Assembly: GCA_040954595.2 (NCBI GenBank)
Contig: CM082576.2
Coordinates: 9,241,129 to 9,305,128 of the forward strand
DNA length: 64,000 nt
From: Balanoglossus misakiensis
Lineage: Eukaryota; Animalia; Hemichordata
Direction: 5' to 3'
A program made the position numbers and the translations under genes. Below the pieces are notes generated by a model, which searched no databases, was not told the DNA's origin, and saw only the letters and a program-made list of their open reading frames with translations. Below, piece by piece: positions 48,201 to 64,000 of this stretch. Each line of letters begins with the position of its first letter. Position 1 is the stretch's first letter.

Positions 48201-50175
48201 TCTTGTATGGTTTCTGTGTCAGGAAATCAGACCATTATAAACAGAATCCTTTCTGTGAACTGTAACCGAGTCCTCACTATTAATATCGCTCCCTTTTCCA
48301 GCCATTCAGCTTCTGTTGTCATTCAAAATGCAGCACAATGCATTAAAGCAGAGGGAAAGGAGATCTCACAAAACCCACCGGCTTTACTGACAGCAACTTT
48401 TACACTTGTCTGACAAATAAGAAAACCATCAAATTAATTACTTGCCAGTTTGTTGGCCATGATTAGACTTAGCTGTGTAATTAACAAGACACTTGTTTTC
48501 AGGTCCTCACAGCAAACATCAATACTAGGTCTGGCAGCGCTTGTCTGATGAGCCGCATAACTACCACCCTGTTTTCCCGAAGAAATGTACAAATCTCTTC
48601 TCGGTAGTTGCAGAGGAAAATCTAAATATAATCAACTAAATTGAATTGGAAATTATGTCCAGATTAATTCTGAGATATGGCCCTGAGACTGCACTTGATT
48701 ATCTTGTGAAGATCCACCTGATAAGCTAGCTGTCCTTTGTGAAAGTCAGTAGCAGAAAGCAACTTTGAGCTTGTATATGAACAGGCTTGCAACACTCAAT
48801 AGAGTGCAATAAACCTGTAATCTTATCTTATTCATTGCAGTAGACTTATAGTGTTTTCTTTATTGATCATAAAATTGGACTGCTGTAGTAGTACATGTAG
48901 TAGTAATCTTTGCAAAGCACCATGGGAACTTCACAGACTGCTTCAAAGACGCTATCATTCAAAATGATGATCGCTTCAAAGAGTGTCCCTGAGACCAATT
49001 TGCTCTTTTAAAAATGAATTTGCACACTTGGGTAAACTACTGATTTATACTACTTTAACGGGCCTTGTGTCCAGTTGTTATTGGGTATATATAGTTATAC
49101 AGCCCGAGGCTGCCTGTTTTCGTCTATGTTACAAACACTGCGATAAGTACTTAAGCCTGAGAATAGGCAAAAGACAATTTACAATGGGTACTGTAGGTTG
49201 TTAAAACGCCCCTGTGAAATATTGATTTTCACTCATTAAACTTTCCTCTTGTTCCTATTTTAATTTTTGATGAACTGCCAACACTTAGTTCCATGACGTC
49301 TCCCCATGTTAAGGGAGATCTTATACATTGTAGACAGACTACAGAACTACATGTACCGAACAAGCAAAACTGACCTTTCCTACATCTGAAAAAAGGCATA
49401 ATTCACTGTAAATCTTGTGTGATTTCTGTCAAAGCCAACCAAGTGAAAACAAAAGCATGTGCACCTCTCACTTACAACTTCTCTGAATTATTGATGATGA
49501 TGGTTAAACCATGTAGAATTAGCGTGCCCACTCATGCGGACAATTCTGACAAAGTGAATTCCGGTACTCCGTCTCTGTCTCTAATTAATTTCCAAGAAAT
49601 TGAAATCCCTAAATGCTAATTTCCCAGCGGGACGGCCATACCGCTGCTGATGATACACTCCTTAATAGCAATGGACTTCCCATCAGTTAGTTGTAAATTA
49701 ATACCTCGGTATAAACAGTATAATGCAATATACTGCTGACCAGCGAAAGGGGCCTACTGAAACAGTAGAACGACTTCGTAGATTTCGCAATGTATATTGT
49801 ACATGCAAGTAGCCATTTGTAGGGCAGGTCATGAAATTACTCCACATCCTTTTAATTCACCTCGTTTTCAGCCTAATTGCCAGGATTCTGTTTTAATGTC
49901 GCCAGCGGGTAATGTCGTGGGTAATTCCATATGCAATGCAGTTTTAAAGAGGGAATCATATATCGGGGGAAATTTAATTTTTCATGAAGTACAACTTGTA
50001 GTCGTAATTTATTTACGATGCCTGGAGACTCTCGCAGTGACCTTACGCGGAAAGTAGAAATGCAGCAACGTGGGAATGGAGAAGACAGAGGAGCAAAATT
50101 GCATAGATGGAGGTGATCGTTGAACTCAAAGTTCTGTTGAGAGAAGAGAAAATGGCATTTTTTTTTCTCCCTTAC

Positions 50176-50360
50176 CTGGCAAAGAAGGAGGCTGCTGCAG
50201 AGGTGTTGGACGCCGATGCCGTACTGGCGTTGGAACTGGTCGGTGGGGATCTGCTGAGGGAGGACACGGCTGCTCCGTGCTGCTGCGACGTCTGCCTGCT
50301 CACGGAAGCATCGGACATAACACTGCCGGATCTGCTACTGCTGGCACTGCTGTGCGTGGC
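50176..50360 (-). CDS. KIF26: KIF26 N-terminal exon (ATHSSASSSRSG...SAAASFFAR)
   Basis: AG at 50362-50361 after a pyrimidine tract, GT at 50175-50174 (CCAG|GTAAGG). 185 bp, phase 0 to 2. Confidence 0.9.
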
Positions 50361-54030: not shown

Positions 54031-54144
54031 TTATTCAAAGCCTTATCACATAGCGAGATTATTACGCCATGAATATTCATAAGACCAGTGTATATAAGTA
54101 AGAAGAGAATGCTACTTGTGGCCAATCCCTTGCTTCCAGACTTA
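54031..54144 (+). repeat. Split direct repeat A1
   Basis: TTATTCAAAGCCTTATCAC...CTTCCAGACTTA, identical by eye to 60178-60291. Confidence 0.95.
54091..54128 (+). promoter_or_regulatory. Putative Pol II core promoter of the retroelement (TATA plus Inr)
   Basis: TATATAA at 54091-54097 and Inr-consensus (YYANWYY) CCAATCC at 54122-54128, about 31-33 nt apart, inside repeat A1. The next ATG is at 54151. Confidence 0.5.
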
Positions 54145-54150
54145 GAAGTG

Positions 54151-54387
54151 ATGATGACTGACGGACGCAGTAATACTCCGGCTACCACAAGCTTGCCTTT
54201 ATCGGCTACCACGGCCACTTTTACACAGGCTCATGTAGCAGGGCCTTCAGCTAGTCAAGGCAGCTCTACACGTGTTTCGGTGCAAGTCCCGGAAGGCGCA
54301 GCTTCTCAGGCTCAGGTGGTGGCAGGCGATACGCCCGCTCAGCATAATAATAGGGATGGCCAAGATCAGCGTTTATCGCAGCAGCAG
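54151..54387 (+). CDS. Putative leader exon of the retroelement (79 aa, low complexity, MMTDGRSNTP...RLSQQQ)
   Basis: ATG at 54151, open to the donor CAG|GTAATT at 54387/54388 (phase 0). After the donor the sequence turns T-rich and the ORF translation stops looking like protein. Confidence 0.6.
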
Positions 54388-54535
54388 GTAATTATCAGTT
54401 TTTGGCTCATTAGCGGAATGTCAATGTCCTTCGGTCTTTGGCTAGGTTTTGTACATACATGTTTCATCGGCCATATTTTGGTCGGTTTAGTTCGATTATG
54501 TTGTTATATTTATTGGGTGTACTGTTAACACTATT

Positions 54536-54950
54536 GTGCAATAGTAGGCGCTCTGGGAGCACCAGGTGGAGTTGCACGAATATGTTATTATGGATGGTGC
54601 AATAGTAGGCGCTCTGGGAGCACCAGGTGGAGTTGCACGAATATGTTATTATGGATGGTGCAATAGTAGGCGCTCTGGGAGCACCAGGTGGAGTTGCACG
54701 AATATGTTATTATGGATGGTGCAATAGTAGGCGCTCTGGGAGCACCAGGTGGAGTTGCACAAATATGTTATTATGGATGGTGCAATAGTAGGCGCTCTGG
54801 GAGCACCAGGTGGAGTTGCACGAATATGTTATTATGGATGGTGCAATAGTAGGCGCTCTGGGAGCACCAGGTGGAGTTGCACGAATATGTTACTGTGGTG
54901 GCACAATAGGTGTTCTGTGAGCACTGGGCGGAGCTGCATGAACATTGTTC
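54536..54950. repeat. 61-bp tandem array inside the retroelement (about 6 near-identical units plus degenerate units)
   Basis: Units start at 54536, 54597, 54658, 54719, 54780 and 54841: GTGCAATAGTAGGCGCTCTGGGAGCACCAGGTGGAGTTGCACGAATATGTTATTATGGATG. Unit 4 has one G>A change; the array degenerates after about 54892. Confidence 0.95.
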
Positions 54951-55428
54951 ATGTAGTGGAGAGCAATAAAGGAATATGCGGGGAGCATCGTAGAGTGTGT
55001 TAAAAAAAAGCATTCGACTGAAGTTCCATGCAATGTTTGATATTCTGTACAACGGTTGGAATGACGGAATGTGTGCAAGGAGTGCGTAATTAGGTAGATT
55101 TGCATATGAATGGGTAACAGTTATTTTAGAGCCACGCACACAATGGACATTGTTTAAGGCATGCCAGGTGGGGCGTGCATTCAAAAGATACCATATGGTT
55201 GTGGAGTGCTCCTGTGAATTTGCATAAGTTCTTTCTATTGTTCTGTATGCTCATAGTATCATGCATGTTGTTTTGTGGAATACGGTCATGATATTGGGTG
55301 TGACTTCGAATGTAGCCGAAATGGTGTCTGGTAGTGGAATTGTCTTACGCATGGGATATTGTAAAGTAACACTGTTAGATGATATCAGGATGTGACGTTG
55401 ACTGATATATTTGCCTGAATTGTTTCAG

Positions 55429-55899
55429 GTTAATGAGAAGTTGACACTGCTAATGAAGAAAGTTGACAAAATCGAAGAAACAGCGGGTGTAGCATCTGTA
55501 GATGAAGCCTTGCATAAAGTGATGGAATTCGCGCATACCCCAGCCTTCTCATCAAGACCACAGGTGTTGAGTGCTCTACGTACGTTGGTGGATAGAGCTA
55601 CTTTGGTGTCGCATCCTAAGCTGCAGAGATTTCGAGCTGTATTGTCGCAGTTTGAAGCGAATGATTTTGGAGAGGACGCTGGACGCTTGATCATTCTGTT
55701 ACTGGGTAACAAAGAGGAAGAAGAGATTGCGTCGAAAGTTTCAAAATTCTTAAAACACAGGCCTTCCAACGATCGTTTTCGTCCGTATGGCCGAGGAAGG
55801 AGAAGGCAATCGTATGGGAAAGATTTCCGATGTTTTAGATGTGGCCAGCCTGGTCATTTTGCCCGCAATTGTCGAATGAAGCCAGATCAGGAAACGTGA
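55429..55899 (+). CDS. Gag-like nucleic-acid-binding protein with CCHC zinc knuckle
   Basis: RFRPYGRGRRR followed by CFRCGQPGHFARNC (CX2CX4HX4C). Phase-0 acceptor TGTTTCAG at 55421-55428; first internal ATG at 55453; stop at 55897-55899. Confidence 0.88.
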   Translation, partial: VNEKLTLLMKKVDKIEETAGVASVDEALHKVMEFAHTPAFSSRPQVLSALRTLVDRATLVSHPKLQRFRAVLSQFEANDFGEDAGRLIILLLGNKEEEEIASKVSKFLKHRPSNDRFRPYGRGRRRQSYGKDFRCFRCGQPGHFARNCRMKPDQET

Positions 55900-55952
55900 A
55901 TGTGTCTTGTAATTCAGTGACTGTAATGACGTTATTTTGGGATACATAATGA

Positions 55953-55958
55953 AATAAA
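55953..55958 (+). terminator. Putative poly(A) signal after gag
   Basis: AATAAA about 54 nt after the stop, in context ATGAAATAAATA, with a GT/T-rich tract at about 55985-56003. Confidence 0.45.
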
Positions 55959-56164
55959 TACACCCGTCTTTATTGTATGCTGCATATTTGTTTATTTGTG
56001 TTGACGAATGATAAGTACATGTCCCATGTTTGAAGATTTGCATGTACGTATGCATATATATAATGTGGTTTAGGTTACCTCTCGATGGGAGGGGCCTTAA
56101 CTAGGCTCTTTGCTTTTGCAACCTGCCATTTGTAGGATCCTGTCGAGGGGCGCCCCCACATTTC

Positions 56165-58387
56165 ATGACGGTTGATATCACCGTTTTGTTGATGGAATCC
56201 TCTTTTGTTTGCTGTTGGTTTCAGCCACCAGTATGGGAAAATGACTTTATGGTGGATATGCATGCTGTCCCGAGAACCCAATATTCGTGGAGAACGCTTG
56301 GGGGCGCCCCTCGTCAGGGTCCTCACCATACCTCGCCTTCGATAGCTATGATAGCACGCGGAGTAGAGTTTGCAACTCCTGATGACTTGGTATTTCGGAA
56401 TACGGAAGATTTCATGGCCGGGCAGATACATGAACATGGTGATTATTGGGACATGATTACAGACCATATACATAACAAGAATGACATTATGGACTGGATA
56501 AGGAATCGTGTTAGTATTTCACAATATTTTACCCATTTCAAGGGGGAGTTTAAAGGGCAACAGTATGATCATGATATTCCACCCCCTAGGGTGTTTCAGA
56601 ATCATCCGAATTGTCGTCAGCATGGTCGGTTTATCGCTCAGACTATCGCTGAACGTGTTAAAGCTGGAGCAGTATCAGTTTGGGGGTTGGTTGGTCGCCA
56701 CCAACCTCCTTATTTGGTTATGCCGATTTCGGTTGAACCGTCTAAACCGCGTATGTGTATTGACATGCGCTTTCTTAATCTATGGACGGAACCTCGTCCG
56801 TTCCACTTAGATAAGCTTTTTGAAGTCACTAGATACTTGGCTGAAGGCGATTTTCAGTTTAAGTGTGATGATAAGAGTGGGTACGACCACGTTTTAATAC
56901 GACATACTGATAGAATGTATGTAGGATTTCAATGGGCGGGGGTGTGGTATGTGAATAATTCATTACCTTTTGGTTGGAAGTTATCGGCATATGTATATCA
57001 CACTTTGGGATATTGTGTTACTAGTTATGCTAGATTATTGGGAGTACCTTGCATTCAATATATCGATGATAGGCATGGGGGTGGATTAAAGTTGCCAGCT
57101 GATGCAAGTTCTTCTTGGGATAGTTTGCAATGTGCACAGGCTGCAGCTTATATATTGTGTAAAATCGCTATTGATGCAGGATATTTTCTCTCTTTGGAGA
57201 AAAGTGTGTTATATCCTGTGACATCTTTGATAATGTTAGGTTTTTCAGTCGATTCGGTGAATAGATCCTTTTCTATCCCGGATGATAAAAAAACGAAGTT
57301 TTTAAATTTGCTGGAGGATGTTCTGTCACAGAGGGCAGTTCCACTTTTGACAATGCAGAAATTAATGGGGAAATGCATTTCATTTACGTTAGCATTACCA
57401 TGCGCTCGGTTATATGTTCGACAAATGGCCAATGCTTGTGGGAAAGCTCAGATATCGAGTAGAGCTTTGATACCTATAAGGGGACGCTTGAAATCTGAGA
57501 TTGTACAGTGGAAATCCATCTTAGATTCGGCGGGTAAATTTATTTGGCCAACCGAAAGTCATGTAGGGGTAAGGGTATTTTCTGACGCAAGTCAGTACAA
57601 ATGGGGTGCGGTTATGTACGTAGCTAATAACAAGGTGGTTATAGGAGATATGTGGGATAGTAAGTGGAAAGATTTTCCCATTATAAAGAAGGAAGCAGAA
57701 GCTTTGTGTAGAGCATTGGTTGGTTTTCAAGAGCAAATTCGTAATACTCGAGTTGATGCATATATCGATGCACTTCCTATAGTACAGGCATGGAATGGGG
57801 GAATTCCGGGAGCAAAAGATGTTGATTTGAATGAAATTTTGAAGCGTATCTTTGACTTCTGCTTTCAGCATAATGTTCGACTCACCCTTACATATATACC
57901 TTCTAAGGCTAATGATGCCGATCTACCTTCTCGATCTACATCATTGTCAAATGCTACTTTGACCGCTGTGGTATGGCAATTCCTGGAGGAAAATTTTGGT
58001 CCTCATCATATAGATGGCATGGCTGATGTTTCTAATAAGAAGTTATCTCGATATGTGTCACAGTTTCCTCAGATAGGATGTGAGGGTGTTAATTTTTTCC
58101 AGCATGTTTTCTCAGACAAGGATACCATTTATGTGTATCCACCATTTTTCTTAGTGGGTGCGACACTTAAACATGTCATTAGTCAGAGATTACATGCCAC
58201 AGTGATTGTACCGAGAGGTCGTTTTCTGGCTTCGTATTGGCCCGTTATTAATCAATTAGCAGCTGCGGTTATAAAGTTGGGTAGTCGAGGGGAAATAGGT
58301 ATTATTCAAGCCCCCTCTACTCAGGGTTATATAGATTATGAGTTGCGGTGTGACCTCTTGGCAGTCAAATTCGATTGGGATGTATAA
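56165..58387 (+). CDS. Pol: reverse transcriptase, RNase H and DIRS-type adenine methyltransferase-like domain
   Basis: RT motifs KPRMCIDMRFLN, DDKSGYDHV, SLPFGW and YIDD (57059-57070). RNase H motifs FSDAS, KEAEAL, YIDA and YIPSKANDADLPSR. MT-like motifs GPHHIDGMAD and IYVYPPF. Uninterrupted 740 codons. The true 5' end may be the acceptor at 56224. Confidence 0.93.
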   Translation: MTVDITVLLMESSFVCCWFQPPVWENDFMVDMHAVPRTQYSWRTLGGAPRQGPHHTSPSIAMIARGVEFATPDDLVFRNTEDFMAGQIHEHGDYWDMITDHIHNKNDIMDWIRNRVSISQYFTHFKGEFKGQQYDHDIPPPRVFQNHPNCRQHGRFIAQTIAERVKAGAVSVWGLVGRHQPPYLVMPISVEPSKPRMCIDMRFLNLWTEPRPFHLDKLFEVTRYLAEGDFQFKCDDKSGYDHVLIRHTDRMYVGFQWAGVWYVNNSLPFGWKLSAYVYHTLGYCVTSYARLLGVPCIQYIDDRHGGGLKLPADASSSWDSLQCAQAAAYILCKIAIDAGYFLSLEKSVLYPVTSLIMLGFSVDSVNRSFSIPDDKKTKFLNLLEDVLSQRAVPLLTMQKLMGKCISFTLALPCARLYVRQMANACGKAQISSRALIPIRGRLKSEIVQWKSILDSAGKFIWPTESHVGVRVFSDASQYKWGAVMYVANNKVVIGDMWDSKWKDFPIIKKEAEALCRALVGFQEQIRNTRVDAYIDALPIVQAWNGGIPGAKDVDLNEILKRIFDFCFQHNVRLTLTYIPSKANDADLPSRSTSLSNATLTAVVWQFLEENFGPHHIDGMADVSNKKLSRYVSQFPQIGCEGVNFFQHVFSDKDTIYVYPPFFLVGATLKHVISQRLHATVIVPRGRFLASYWPVINQLAAAVIKLGSRGEIGIIQAPSTQGYIDYELRCDLLAVKFDWDV

Positions 58388-58542
58388 ATCATGTAGTTGT
58401 TACTATTTATGGGATATATGATGGGTATACAGTAAATGGTTTTTCTTCTTTGGTGAATTTGTAGTATTGCAAAAGATCGTTAGGATTTTGATAGAGATAT
58501 TATAAGTGTATCTTCTATTAATGTCAATATTATCTGGTATGA

Positions 58543-58552
58543 AATAAATAAA
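58543..58552 (+). terminator. Putative poly(A) signal after pol
   Basis: Two overlapping AATAAA hexamers in the same ATGAAATAAATA context as after gag. Confidence 0.45.
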
Positions 58553-58606
58553 ATATTTTATGTCTTAGTAGACTGATGAATGGGTGTCTCTTATGATTTC
58601 TTCTAG

Positions 58607-59875
58607 ACATGTTGGATTTGTGGTGCTTTGAATGATACAACATCTCAGTCATGTGGTGTCTGTTCATCAAAAGCGATCCAAGGAACCGGTTTAAATGACT
58701 TCAACGGTGTTGACCTTCATCATATCGACCAACGTATCTCGGATTTATTAGGGGATCGATCTCCGTATGAGAAACAGAAAGACCGCTTAATACAAGAACT
58801 TGAGTTATTCCTTGCAAGACTCCCTGTGCCCAAGCCTGTAAGCCGTGCTAGCCCGCACGATATTGTTAGGTTTTTAGTCTTTAAGGATAAAGATGCGAAA
58901 ACGCAAGTCCATCGTTACACATGTGCATACTTAGGTCAGCCGGGTCGTGCGCCATGCGGTTGTCCTAAACGTCTGAGGATAGGTTCAGCCAAAAACATGA
59001 TATCTAAGATCTCTTCATATTTTCAAGCACGACAAAAAGAAAATCCGAATCAGCGTTTTTGTAACCCCACTGATAGTATAATGGTGCAAAGGTATTTAAA
59101 GAAAATCTCTGAGGAGCAGGCACAAGCGAATGTGACAGTCAGACAGGCTAAGCCGTTATTTTTGCCGAAGGTCATTTGCGTCTTTGAGCATTTGTTAAAG
59201 TTACTCTCTTCATGTTCGTCACCACTCTTAGCATATATATATGCTAGAGACATGGCCGTGTTTAAGCTTTTATTTTTCTCAGGTGATAGAGCAGGGGATC
59301 TGGGTCACATTAAGACACAGGAGGTTCTTCGTTTCCCCGATAATTCAGGTTTGCTTTTCAATCATACATTTGGGAAGACTCTTCGTGGATGTAATTCAAA
59401 TATGTTTGTACTTAAGAGATGTGCGGATACCCGTTTGTGTCCTGTAAATACTTTAGAGCGATATATTGATTTGTCTTTAAATCTAGGTGTAGATATCATG
59501 ACTGGGTATTTGTTTAGACCCACTAAACCTAATGGTGATATAGAGAACAAACCTTTGTCATCGCAGGTTATATATCATCGGCTTAAACTTTATTTACAAT
59601 CACTTAATATGGATGAAGGTGAGACACCACACAGTCTGAGAAGTGCGTGTGCTATCACTATGTCGTTAGCGGGTGCTCACGTAGATGAAGTCATGAGTCA
59701 TGTGGGTTGGAAAACTGAGAAGATGGCTGATTATTATACTAAGCTGTCAGTTGTTGCCAATATTGGCCGCCAAGGCAATAGAACGGAGGATTTGCTTGCT
59801 TCCATGCGACATATTGAAAGGTATAATGCAACTGAGAAACTTGTTGGATTCACAAGGGCTTTTCAGGCCAAGTAA
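58607..59875 (+). CDS. Tyrosine recombinase with N-terminal C4 zinc finger and ALOG DNA-binding domain
   Basis: Frame opens right after TTTCTTCTAG (58606). Contains CWIC-GALN-x6-CGVC, an ALOG-like segment FLVFKDKDAKTQVHRYTC..G.P...PCGCPKRL..GS...ISK...NP.....VQRYLK.I..EQAQA, and catalytic R (SGDRAGD), K (GKT), HSLR, HVGW and Y (MADYY). Confidence 0.92.
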   Translation, partial: TCWICGALNDTTSQSCGVCSSKAIQGTGLNDFNGVDLHHIDQRISDLLGDRSPYEKQKDRLIQELELFLARLPVPKPVSRASPHDIVRFLVFKDKDAKTQVHRYTCAYLGQPGRAPCGCPKRLRIGSAKNMISKISSYFQARQKENPNQRFCNPTDSIMVQRYLKKISEEQAQANVTVRQAKPLFLPKVICVFEHLLKLLSSCSSPLLAYIYARDMAVFKLLFFSGDRAGDLGHIKTQEVLRFPDNSGLLFNHTFGKTLRGCNSNMFVLKRCADTRLCPVNTLERYIDLSLNLGVDIMTGYLFRPTKPNGDIENKPLSSQVIYHRLKLYLQSLNMDEGETPHSLRSACAITMSLAGAHVDEVMSHVGWKTEKMADYYTKLSVVANIGRQGNRTEDLLASMRHIERYNATEKLVGFTRAFQAK

Positions 59876-59936
59876 AATGTGGGCGACTTTTCTGTGATCT
59901 GTTATATTATACGCAGCTACATGGTAGTTTCAATAT

Positions 59937-59942
59937 AATAAA
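59937..59942 (+). terminator. Putative poly(A) signal after YR
   Basis: AATAAA about 62 nt after the YR stop. Confidence 0.4.
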
Positions 59943-60099
59943 TAGTATATACTTGTGGCTTGGACACTCCTCTTTCGTCCGTTTCCTTATTGACGCAAAC
60001 CAGTGGGGGGAGTGGGGATTGAGGTTTGAGGATTGGGGATTTAGGTGGGGGAATCTTTGAGGAGAGTTTTATAAATAATGAATATCGCGGGCAAATGGA

Positions 60100-60291
60100 C
60101 AACATCAGGCTCTTTAACCCATTCCTTATAATAATAGGTATATCATTGAGCGGAGTGATTAGGCTTTAAATATTATATTATTCAAAGCCTTATCACATAG
60201 CGAGATTATTACGCCATGAATATTCATAAGACCAGTGTATATAAGTAAGAAGAGAATGCTACTTGTGGCCAATCCCTTGCTTCCAGACTTA
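60100..60291 (+). repeat. Internal B1-A2 junction copy (B1 60100-60178, A2 60178-60291)
   Basis: CAACATCAGGC...AAATATTATAT runs directly into TATTCAAAGCC..., i.e. a copy of the element's right end fused to a copy of its left end. Confidence 0.95.
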
Positions 60292-60421
60292 TAGAAGTTA
60301 AGATGTAATTAGGATCGAGTACCCAGGAGGGGGATAAGGTGACTATGTAGGAGGAAGTGGGGATCGGGTAAGGTGTTCGCCCACCCGCCCACCCCCTTTT
60401 TATCATTTCGCTCATGATTAC

Positions 60422-60500
60422 CAACATCAGGCTCTTTAACCCATTCCTTATAATAATAGGTATATCATTGAGCGGAGTGATTAGGCTTTAAATATTATAT
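60422..60500 (+). repeat. Split direct repeat B2 (right terminus)
   Basis: 79 bp identical by eye to 60100-60178. Confidence 0.95.
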
Positions 60501-61444
60501 AATTACACGCACATGCTTTTCCAAACATGCAACACTTCTTTTTCTTTCAGGAGACCTTTTCTCCTTTCTATTTTTCTGCAGCTGTTTATGTTTCACCGGG
60601 GAGGTTACCACACGCAGTTCCACCAAGGCTGCTCGGCACACCTCTAAACAGTAGTCCGGGCCGGGGACCGTGGGCTCCTTCAGCCACTTGCCCAAACAAT
60701 GACTCAACAGCCAGAAACCCAATACTTTGTCTCCAAACTAAACAGCAGCCACCACTCTCCATACTCCCGTCATTCAAGCATGCACTTGAGAGAGTCCAAA
60801 ACACAGAATGTCCATGTTTGAAAAAAAAGAAAGAAGAGAGAGTGGCTCCACGTATCTTGGGACTTCACGCTAAAACAACCAGTTCATAGGATAGACTACT
60901 TAGTTGCCTTCTTGAATGGCCTGTGGTATTCTTAATAAAGTGACTTTTCGCTTCGCGATATCAATGGTTTTGTTGTCCCCCCGTTCAAACCCGCGAGTTC
61001 CCCAGGTGAATCGAAGATACATGTACCCTTGTCCTGCCCTCCCCTACTCACACTCGCTGTTATTGTTGCATTGTGACAGTTTGTATGGCAGTGTCCCGGT
61101 CAACAAGTACTTGCCACCATCTATGCGGACACAAACTATCAGATCAATGCTGCCTTTTCTCATTGAAATTTGATGACAGCAATTAAGTTTGATTTTTATT
61201 GACCTCTTTTGGAGACTATGCCCATACACTGCAGTGAATGGCGTTAAACTGCATTGAGTTCCTTATGAGTTTACAGACATTAAAAAAGGCACCATCTTTA
61301 TATTTCTTTTTTTTTAAAGGTGGCAAGTGAATGAGAGTGTTCAGGCAGCATGCATCATATATCCTGGTAGTGAAATGTAAGTATAAGGTGCGAGTGTACT
61401 ACATGACAGTGTTGTCATACTGGCAGGTATATATTTTTTCTTAC

Positions 61445-61924
61445 CTGATAGTGTGGAAGTAAGGCACTTGGTTGCTGGTTACTCCAGGTGGGTGCTGATG
61501 CGGCCGTCGACGACGACACCGTGCTGCTGCTGCTATCCCCTTCCAGGTACTGCTGGGCCTGCGCGGCCAGCTGTATGGCCGACATGGGCGACGAGGACGT
61601 GGACGCGCTGTTCGGGGTGCCGTAGATGCCCTTGCCCTGCCTCGACTGCCGGGAGTGTCCCAGGGACTTGTCGTGGGAGTGGTACATGTAGAGGCAGCGC
61701 TGCAGCGAGGCCAGGTTGCAGGAGCCCACCAGGGCCGGGATGTTGCTCAGGGAGGAGGTGTCGCCGCTGGACTGCGCTCGCTCCAGGGAGTGCACCATGG
61801 CAACCGCCTCGTGCTTGAGCTGGCTGAGGTGCGTGGCGCACACCTCACATCTGTTGTCCGTCCACTTCTGCGAGCTGTCGGGCACTTGGAGCTTTTCGTG
61901 CAGCACTGCAGATATCTCGTGCGC
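61445..61924 (-). CDS. KIF26: KIF26 N-terminal exon (AHEISAVLHEKLQVP...RCEVCATHLSQLKHEA...PHYQ)
   Basis: AG at 61926-61925, GT at 61444-61443. 480 bp, phase 0 to 0, GC-rich codon usage. The CEVCATHLxQLKxEA motif resembles the KIF26A/B N-terminus. Upstream exons are outside the window. Confidence 0.87.
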
Positions 61925-64000
61925 CTGTGGGAGGAAAAAAAAAGAAGAAACAATTCAATTCAACGTGATGGCCTGGATACAATAAGTGATGAAACACCAT
62001 CATCTTCGCAATTGTCGTCAAGGGAATTACAGCAAAAACACAATGACGACTGAAAGCAAATGGATATAAAAGGGAAGAAAACTATGACAGAATGTACATA
62101 AAAGTACCATTGGGATATATACTCTTGTTGGCGATAAAGACATTCCCAGCAGCTAAAGTTTGACAGCTAAATCTTCCACCTATTTTATCCAGCACAATGG
62201 TACAAATTCATGAATAATTCATGTCCCGCTGCCTCGCGTAGGCAGACCTCCGTTGTGGTGGAAAAACTCCTCATTAGCCAGTATTTCCTTCTCAGACGCA
62301 CAAAGTTGGGGAATTTGACATATGCGCTAATATGATCGGTTTCTTCTTACAATGCCCGTCTGAACAAACACTCTGCAGATGTAGCCTAGTTTGAACTAAG
62401 GATTACCGAATGATGATGAACAATTGAGACTACGTGTGAACATGCCATTATTAGAGAGAGGGGGACTTCTGTTACAACCCCCAACAAACTTAGGGCAGCA
62501 GTTGTTCACCAATATGAAATGTGAATACACATCTCCTTATCCGACAGAACATTTTAGTATTTTTTGTTACCAGAAAACTAGAAAAAAAAGCTTGATATTG
62601 TTGACAGCACTGCCAGAGATCGGCGCAAGAAATGGTTTGAGCCAATCAAAACTTGTTGATTATGGGTGGGTTTGTTAGTGCTTCCAGTATTTGACTGAAT
62701 CAAATAGGCACTTTGAATGACATGTTTAGGCATCATGATCTGTTCAATGGGCAAACCCAAAAGCTTTGTCCCAATGCTAATTTACAGTAACTGACTAATT
62801 ACATTACAAAGTGGACAGTGGCTGCATCCAATGTTGTGGGAGATTACACCACCTCTGGGCGATCTCTCTTACACAAATGGGGCTTGCTTTTTGAAAAAAA
62901 GTAAATTTCCCTCATCAGGAAACACAGTGAGACGAAAAAAATTATTCAACATGGCCGTCCTTAAATAAACACAGATCATCCAGCTAATAGAAGTTTACTT
63001 TCAGTAATTGAATACAGTTTAATACCATTGTCTGCAAGAGCTGGTGTTGCTGCCTGTTTTGAAATCAGTTCCTGCATAGACAGTATGTAGTTCCAATGCG
63101 TATGGTTACTGTCATCTGATTGGCTGCGACAAAAAAACAGCGAACACTTGAGGATAGACATGTGCAGACAACATTATTGTCGTCTATTCACAACTGGCAT
63201 TACATACGCTGGCTGCTGCTGAATGTCTGTGCCTGTACGAATTAAGTTGTGACTTTCAGCTCAACGATTTGCATATTTATTTCATTTGGTCTAAATCTGA
63301 TTAAATCCAATGGCCACGTCTCAGACAGTCTGCCCAGAGCTCCATATCTGCATAGGTGAGCAGATGGCCGATCTTCAACACAGCACGCTGTTGACTACAG
63401 CAACGTAATTGCATCCAGCCCCCAAACAGTCCGACAGAAACCAGAGAAATTCAAGTCATGTGCACCAAACAAGTGGAGAATGCTATATACGTGGATGACC
63501 CCTCGCTGAGCTGCAATACGCCACTCTGGCAGTATATGCACACTGCATTCAAACTCACTTGTGTGCAAAAGAAACAGTTAATTTTTTTCTTCATTATGAT
63601 CCATTCAAAATCCAAATCAAAAGGAAGTCTGTCATCCTAAGGAACACAGGCATCAAACACCACACACAATTACCGACTTTGACAGCGTTGAATCTAATTT
63701 TCAGAACGTTGTTCAATTCATAGTATAGAGAAGGAGAATGTGGTTTAATAGAATAATTATTCCATTTTTTCCTTCAAAAATGGCTGTATCATGGATATAA
63801 CAATGGTACCTTTGTACGATATTAAATTGCCTAGGACAGTTTTTTTAATGGATAGGGATGAAAAAGGCTTTGTTACGTGCAACTAAACTGAAGTGTGTTC
63901 AAATACTTCATATGGACAACTACTTGTAATAGACTCCATAGTGCTTACCAAAATAATGACATTACCATACAGGGGGAGTTACTCAACTTGTTTATCATTA

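Follow-up and report, generated by a model that had tools for sequence, protein, structure and literature searches.

Organization of the element

We analysed a window of 64,000 nucleotides (nt) of contig CM082576.2 from the hemichordate Balanoglossus misakiensis (assembly GCA_040954595.2, positions 9,241,129 to 9,305,128 of the forward strand). At 54031-60500 of this window lies an intact retrotransposon whose three open reading frames (ORFs), for Gag, Pol and a tyrosine recombinase (YR), are all unbroken and are flanked by split direct repeats in the order A-genes-B-A-B. A first-pass annotation of the DNA, made from its letters alone, had proposed that one leader exon is spliced to three alternative terminal exons encoding these proteins. 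We find this feature to be real and conserved; its probable mode of expression appears to be new, in a class of element that is known.

The annotated span, 54091..59942, stopped short of the ends of the element, and the repeats had been overlooked. All features of the element lie on the forward strand. The left end is formed by repeat A1 (54031-54144), which is identical over 114/114 nt to A2 (60178-60291), and the right end by B2 (60422-60500), which matches B1 (60100-60182) at 99% identity across 83 nt in an alignment extending to 60504. A1 holds a TATATAA box (54091-54097) and an initiator (Inr)-like CCAATCC (54122-54128), which would serve as the promoter, together with the right arm of a recombination core (54032-54049); the left arm of that core (60477-60494) and its 6-nt spacer are in B2. 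No target-site duplication is present at the ends.

From these features we classify the element as a PAT-like, ALOG-type YR retrotransposon of the order DIRS, an assignment that draws on a weak methylase match and a YR-based tree. A recombinase with its catalytic residues, a reverse transcriptase (RT) with RNase H and a Gag-like first ORF place it in the order, the A1-genes-B1-A2-B2 repeats are those of PAT-like elements, and the N-terminal zinc ribbon followed by an ALOG domain in YR marks the ALOG type. Inverted repeats of the DIRS1 kind are lacking, since the 25 longest inverted pairs in the window all fall outside the element, which has only 18-nt arms at its ends. The repeats would fit an Ngaro-like element, but the weak methyltransferase match in Pol points away from this group. 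Neither a protease nor a DDE integrase family was among the Pfam matches of the element proteins. The closest recombinase, from Ptychodera flava, shares 48% identity and groups with that of the window with a support of 100 in our tree, which is a quick one built from YR only.

A predicted leader exon and three candidate acceptors in one phase

The coding part of the leader exon (54151-54387) comprises 79 codons (237 nt), is rich in A, Q, T and S, matches no Pfam family, and ends at the phase-0 donor CAG/GTAATT at 54387/54388. The Gag exon (55429-55899, 156 codons) encodes a long N-terminal helix, a helical domain and a CCHC knuckle (PF00098, E=3.5e-7, above the cut-off). Gag could be aligned to relatives, and its fold model had a predicted local distance difference test (pLDDT) score of 81; the model found no PDB match with E<0.001 and no capsid fold, and its Atlas matches were all below 0.9. 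The Pol exon (56225-58387, 720 codons) encodes RT, RNase H and a methyltransferase-like tail, with the motifs LPFG (247), YIDD (279) and YVYPP (636) and 35-46% identity to relatives. Its Pfam matches are below cut-off (RVT_1, E=0.009; RT_RNaseH, E=0.09), and the match of the tail to Dam (PF05869) is weak (E=0.034, 14.3 bits against a cut-off of 28.1). The YR exon (58607-59875, 422 codons) encodes a CxxC-CxxC finger (2, 16), an ALOG domain (PF04852, E=9.4e-19, residues 51-168) and a catalytic domain (PF00589, E=4.6e-11) whose R228, H342, R345, H365 and Y377 occupy invariant columns across 53 sequences. An AATAAA poly(A) signal follows each frame, at 55953-55958 behind Gag, at 58543-58548 behind Pol and 64 nt before the YR acceptor, and at 59937-59942 behind YR and upstream of B1; the first two lie within ATGAAATAAATA.

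On checking the sequence, we found the TATA/Inr motifs, the ATG at 54151, the 79 codons and the phase-0 donor where they had been annotated, and likewise the three signals and the acceptors ending at 55428, 56224 and 58606. Joining the leader to each acceptor gives in-frame proteins of 235, 799 and 501 amino acids (aa), each with a single terminal stop. A candidate YTGAT branch point precedes each acceptor, the distance from its A to the acceptor end being 23 nt for gag, 32 nt for pol and 30 nt for YR, and gag and YR have GACTGAT in common. In YR, the acceptor AG belongs to an in-frame TAG and codon 2 already encodes the first Cys; no in-frame ATG occurs before 58997 (residue 131), which lies inside ALOG.

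Of 20 donor-like sites listed for the element, only one outscores the leader donor, and among the 181 YAG sites of the element the acceptors rank first (Pol), tenth (YR) and thirty-sixth (Gag). These ranks come from rough measures of our own, untrained donor weights and a simple pyrimidine score. Splice signals in the window by itself are thus uneven, and the case that they exceed chance comes from relatives.

Conservation of the acceptors in related elements

Relatives were collected by an alignment-based metagenome scan, of which the best 80 of 201 were kept, so that the families are a sample; the set comprised 82 loci in 41 families at 75% nucleotide identity. No relatives turned up in viral_contigs (single-protein and alignment scans) or in genome_contigs (single-protein scan). 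Among 62 loci with a YR start, we took the 45 with a readable zinc finger, setting aside the 17 without one, and, blind to frame, chose in each the highest-scoring pyrimidine-tract YAG within 80 nt upstream of the finger. It was in phase 0 in 44/45 loci and, with the window left out, in 21/22 families (P=1.4e-9). Control windows in coding DNA gave phase 0 in 57/192. The sole miss, L052, does hold a phase-0 acceptor 14 codons ahead of the finger, which scored lower. An earlier test anchored by BLAST had yielded 33/53 loci and 20/31 families, figures lowered by frameshifts in decayed copies, and the anchor was therefore moved to the zinc finger.

In 22/24 loci, or 20/22 families, no in-frame ATG is present before the YR finger. 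In a corresponding test, the Pol acceptor was in phase 0 in 22/30 loci and in 15/19 families including the window (P=6e-5). In 8 further families an acceptor lies where the long helix of Gag begins, and Gag opens behind it, an observation to which no statistic is attached and in which the site is sometimes below the top score. The leaders of relatives are short and rich in P, A, Q and V, lie downstream of a TATA box and end at a phase-0 GT; of 12 leader regions, chosen by eye, 10 had their top-scoring donor in phase 0. The phase of the YR and Pol acceptors seen in the window is conserved in most related elements.

These data bear on an alternative in which nothing is spliced, Pol and YR being made from internal promoters, by reinitiation or from non-ATG starts, and the pyrimidine tracts are mere T-rich spacers. 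The spacers do consist of 28-48% T, the gag and pol frames of the window have early ATGs, and many YR frames have a GTG near their start. Such an arrangement nevertheless leaves unexplained why an AG in a single phase stands 12-16 codons before the finger in 43 relatives, why an in-frame TAG closes the frame directly upstream of the YR acceptor in 13/24 loci, and why oyster proteins exist in joined form (see below). We regard expression without splicing as highly improbable.

Another alternative is that the splice layout is ancestral and that the window copy, or its family, retains only some joins, for instance those of Gag and Pol, with YR expressed by another route. The YR acceptor of the window lies one codon before the first Cys, compared with 12-16 codons in relatives, a stronger YAG occurs off frame at 58464, and the gene models of the nearest relative differ at YR. 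The YAG at 58464, however, is upstream of the Pol poly(A) signal and yields no frame, whereas the YR frame itself is closed by the TAG at its acceptor and offers no ATG for 130 codons. The element is, moreover, intact with identical repeats, which speaks for a recent move with a working YR. Partial use of the layout therefore strikes us as very improbable too.

Poly(A) signals behind the three frames

A poly(A) signal follows Gag in 13/14 families (2.9 expected), is found in Pol-YR spacers of at least 60 nt in 10/14 families (3.7 expected), and occurs within 200 nt of the YR stop in 16/37 families (6.5 expected); in each case 0/300 shuffles reached the observed count. In most families that have it, the Pol signal precedes the YR acceptor by 37-80 nt. 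When the Pol-YR region is considered in all 21 families, 10 have a signal, 4 have a spacer of at least 60 nt without one, and 7 have a near-zero spacer or an overlap. In these 7 families, the Pol and YR mRNAs would have a common 3' end. Conservation of AATAAA in relatives, as expected from the annotation, accordingly holds behind Gag, shows as an enrichment behind YR (16/37) and is not general behind Pol (10/21), and the proposal of three terminal exons fits the window copy without being a rule of the family. For the window copy, we consider it reasonably likely that each mRNA would have a poly(A) end of its own. Antisense poly(A) signals in the Gag-Pol spacer, which had seemed frequent, proved to be at chance level (10 against 9.5 expected).

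Proteins joined to a common leader

Protein databases contain joined proteins of this kind from relatives. One leader of a Magallana gigas family continues, at one residue, into Gag, Pol or YR. The leader-Gag form is represented by Logan ORFs P0131, P0150 and P0194, from contigs of 1.1-1.4 kb that were examined as protein only, the leader-Pol form by XP_065927580.1, and the leader-YR form by XP_065927831.1 and four similar models. The Gag ORF of longer M. gigas contigs (P0143) is without its first 135 residues, which implies an intron that is lost in the short contigs. Mytilus models include leader-Gag and leader-Pol proteins joined at one residue (P0137, P0193), and leader-Gag, leader-Pol or leader-YR joins occur among models from Mytilus, Argopecten and Lineus. 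In the Ptychodera models, a low-complexity leader runs into Pol at a point no more than one codon away from the acceptor seen in the window. The RefSeq proteins are gene models, here taken as annotated.

The core of the original proposal thus gains the conservation in about 20 families and the mollusc proteins joined at one residue, and for the window copy we infer that one phase-0 donor probably serves three acceptors, also in phase 0, as alternatives that lead to Gag, Pol or YR.

Several points weigh against this reading. The junctions of the window copy are predictions. Its Gag acceptor is weak, and early in-frame ATGs that had been missed are present in gag (55453) and pol (56249 downstream, 56165 and 56192 upstream of the acceptor); an in-frame ATG also precedes the YR finger in 2/24 loci of the relatives. 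The oyster and mussel elements belong to another clade, in which the leader is longer and made up of two exons and Gag contains a donor (L047, L048), so their joins illustrate the principle and not the junctions of the window. A search with a coral-type leader for spliced proteins returned unspliced read-through ORFs in 11/11 cases. As regards the poly(A) signals, 11/21 families have no Pol signal or no room for one. Finally, in 7/8 RefSeq models from Ptychodera, and likewise in two from Saccostrea, the route to YR leads through an 80-residue segment of Pol, and there are further models in which Gag-Pol-YR or Pol-YR form a single chain (P0140, P0141, P0027, P0015).

These last models favour an arrangement in which the acceptors are used in series, with donors near the ends of Gag and Pol giving a Gag-Pol-YR or Pol-YR polyprotein, or YR via a Pol piece. 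P0140 and P0141 (1443 and 1416 aa) join all three proteins, P0027, P0015 and P0076 join Pol to YR, the Pol piece is used by the Ptychodera and Saccostrea models, a phase-0 donor occurs close to the end of Pol in L047 and L080, and methylase-YR fusions among animal models are noted by Iyer and Aravind (PMC3537659). In the window, however, no phase-0 donor scores >0.7 in Gag, >0 in Pol codons 1-130 or at least 2 after codon 448, and the position corresponding to the Ptychodera-type Pol piece has no usable in-frame donor (best score -0.2). The intact Pol frames of L001 and L022 lack any phase-0 donor of at least 2.5, the serial models drop the Gag knuckle or the Pol end, no protease is encoded that could cut a polyprotein (PMC3783388, as far as its available text goes), and a poly(A) signal stands behind Gag in 13/14 families. 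We judge serial use to be quite unlikely; the Pol-piece YR models (P0121-P0127 of Ptychodera, P0116 and P0128 of Saccostrea) may possibly represent a fourth isoform or a habit of gene modelling.

The mollusc and nemertean clade displays a second layout, with a long leader containing a folded 105-residue domain, an intron, and a strong phase-0 donor in the Gag exon behind a coiled-coil helix (L048 at 593 and 1621, L047 at 164; proteins P0092, P0143 and P0137). Here Gag could read through the donor, from which Pol and YR could be spliced so as to carry the Gag helix and co-assemble. The model of the leader domain has a pLDDT of 88, with weak structure matches (Z up to 4.2), several of which are SAP/LEM-like (2.4-3.5). 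Leaders of this type are also fused to host proteins in models P0133 and P0289 (integrin-beta-like and GTPase-like), which suggests exon capture. Three animal-type retrotransposons (L080, L081, L082) occur in contigs filed as bacterial genomes and are probably host contamination.

Proposed mode of expression

If one donor serves three acceptors, a single pre-mRNA would start at the A1 promoter and would be spliced from 54387 to the acceptor at 55428, 56224 or 58606, joins of a kind recorded as proteins in molluscs. The leader exon would supply the start codon to all three proteins. Cleavage behind Gag would give a short Gag mRNA, the most abundant; read-through would give the Pol mRNA and further read-through the YR mRNA, so that amounts would fall in the order Gag > Pol > YR. 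Cleavage usually takes place 10-30 nt behind a poly(A) signal, and the YR branch-point candidate (58571-58577) falls in the zone expected for the Pol signal. Because the Pol signal would thus sit on this branch point, Pol cleavage and YR splicing would be mutually exclusive.

All three mRNAs would end upstream of B1-A2-B2. In the published repeat-annealing model of these elements, both A and B copies are needed (PMC6681497, in its available text). As the mRNAs would lack repeats required for reverse transcription, only a rare unspliced read-through RNA would be copied, and its copying would preserve the introns. That spliced mRNAs would be unfit as templates agrees with the absence of processed copies, the leader end being followed directly by GT in 13/13 cases found. 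Such a genome RNA would have to remain unspliced, pass four AATAAA signals and terminate in B2 instead of B1.

The fourth of these signals (54965) lies in predicted intron 1 (54388-55428), as does a tandem array of 5.9 copies of a 61-nt unit (54536-54892); both had been missed. Tandem repeats are found at the same place in many families (L001, L007, L009, L016, L024, L065, L081), with unrelated units of 26-145 nt. A role of the arrays in intron retention or RNA packaging is possible. Unspliced RNA (54151-54528) would encode a 125-aa peptide consisting of the leader and a hydrophobic tail; similar tails occur in relatives, and the peptide is probably a by-product of T-rich introns.

The annotation had also suggested that a common leader could target the three proteins to one particle. 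This idea finds no support in this clade, as the leaders are short and without common sequence, and the low-complexity leader of the window shows no similarity even to that of Ptychodera, its nearest relative. We consider co-targeting by so short a leader unlikely. Most likely, the leader donates a start codon and acts as a flexible linker rather than as a targeting tag.

A putative recombination site and the host locus

At the B1/A2 junction, positions 60155-60196 form a core of 18-nt inverted arms with 2 mismatches around a 6-nt spacer. Its motif, AATA-N6-TATT, makes the core resemble att, loxP or dif sites, and the spacer is kept whole at the right end of the element. The same core occurs in 9/35 families against 0.07 expected, a count that is partly circular because the motif was derived from these matches. 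It is likely that this core is the site of the recombinase. The cDNA would circularise, its circle junction would be the inverted-arm core, and the recombinase would join the core to a target. A literature search for this junction core found no description of it. A conserved core would provide a defined substrate for a eukaryotic tyrosine recombinase that is as yet uncharacterised.

The element is likely to sit antisense within an intron of a KIF26-like host gene. On the minus strand, a reading frame of a KIF26-like exon (PF23081, E=1e-14) spans 61418-61954, a further KIF26-like kinesin exon lies at about 50175-50334, and host splice sites are present on both flanks of the element. The second promoter copy, in A2, is followed by two good donors (60338 and 60367) and by no ORF in 60292-60421; transcripts started in A2 could be spliced into host DNA.

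Relation to known systems

The closest described elements are the ALOG-containing DIRS1-like retroposons of Iyer and Aravind (2012; PMC3537659), which, according to the available text, have a Gag knuckle, RT-RNase H, an inactive adenine methylase, a YR with zinc ribbon and ALOG, and direct repeats, and occur in marine animals. Animal copies were treated there as mostly disrupted, and the words 'splic', 'intron' and 'exon' are absent from the main text. The window copy differs in being intact and in having poly(A) signals together with a leader exon and three acceptors. PAT-like YR retrotransposons (PMC4157794, PMC3266345, PMC6681497) have the A1-genes-B1-A2-B2 layout, Gag, RT-RNase H-methyltransferase and YR, and no target-site duplication; in the available portions of these papers they are described as three plain, often overlapping ORFs, and spliced expression is not described. 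The annotation had contrasted the window with overlapping ORFs in classical DIRS/PAT elements. Such overlaps are indeed often described, but, according to the same portions, half of 28 DIRS1-like elements have no long overlap, and the lack of overlap is therefore not new as such.

Likenesses exist further afield. The Ty1/Copia element EVD of Arabidopsis makes an RNA for Gag alone through alternative splicing linked to early termination, and with it a surplus of structural protein, whereas its full-length unspliced RNA makes the Gag-Pol polyprotein (Oberlin et al. 2017, PMC5580714, in its available text). In the window element, by contrast, each protein would need its own splice from a common coding exon, and unspliced RNA would give the 125-aa peptide. 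Foamy viruses (PMC3705302, in part) express Pol independently of Gag, through a spliced mRNA of its own, and must package it separately. Neither system, as presented in these sources, has one coding exon common to all three proteins.

The Pol mRNA of foamy viruses contains no Gag sequence, retroviral mRNAs end in the long terminal repeat, and retroviral Gag is made from unspliced RNA. Compared with foamy viruses, in the window element even Gag would be spliced, with a common coding leader and internal poly(A) sites.

A further parallel comes from mammals, in which the LAP2alpha exons of TMPO and ZNF451 were captured from DIRS1 Gag; Abascal et al. (2015, PMC4495291) infer that this Gag sequence probably came with a poly(A) signal and a splice acceptor. 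This is the make-up of the Gag exon in the window; use of the signals by the element itself was not proposed in that study, which concerned vertebrate DIRS1 elements with inverted repeats. The splice model would explain why DIRS1 Gag had such an acceptor and signal.

We found no description of spliced expression of YR retrotransposons in the literature searched, the coverage of which did not extend to the main reviews (Goodwin, Poulter, Butler), Kojima 2020, Repbase Reports and supplements, where spliced expressed sequence tags might be mentioned. Word searches in the available text of PMC3537659, PMC3266345, PMC4157794, PMC6681497, PMC7192593, PMC9341512, PMC12477816, PMC3783388, PMC13465315, PMC5633606 and PMC2632668 returned none. 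In the available text of the literature examined, the expression of Pol and recombinase is left unaddressed, and the ORFs are drawn as plain frames. The spliced layout is thus apparently undescribed so far for YR retrotransposons.

In conclusion, if the proposed mode of expression is true, existing annotations of these elements miss the true start of every protein, and animal copies that seem broken may be intact. A retroelement would hold on to three introns because each of its mRNAs stops short of the repeats needed for copying. Exact junctions and 3' ends are also predicted for corals, oysters and mussels, for which RNA data exist. Whether spliced expression from a common coding exon, with tiered poly(A) sites that render the mRNAs unfit as templates, is general for YR retrotransposons is a more tentative matter, which we put at somewhat below even. 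If it is, these elements would follow a third strategy beside frameshifted polyproteins and retroviral splicing, one in which even Gag is spliced and no useful product is encoded by the genome RNA. It would also explain why mammals twice captured DIRS Gag as a terminal exon that was already complete, and the site at which a eukaryotic RNA-borne integrase recombines would be defined by the inverted-arm core and its 6-nt spacer.

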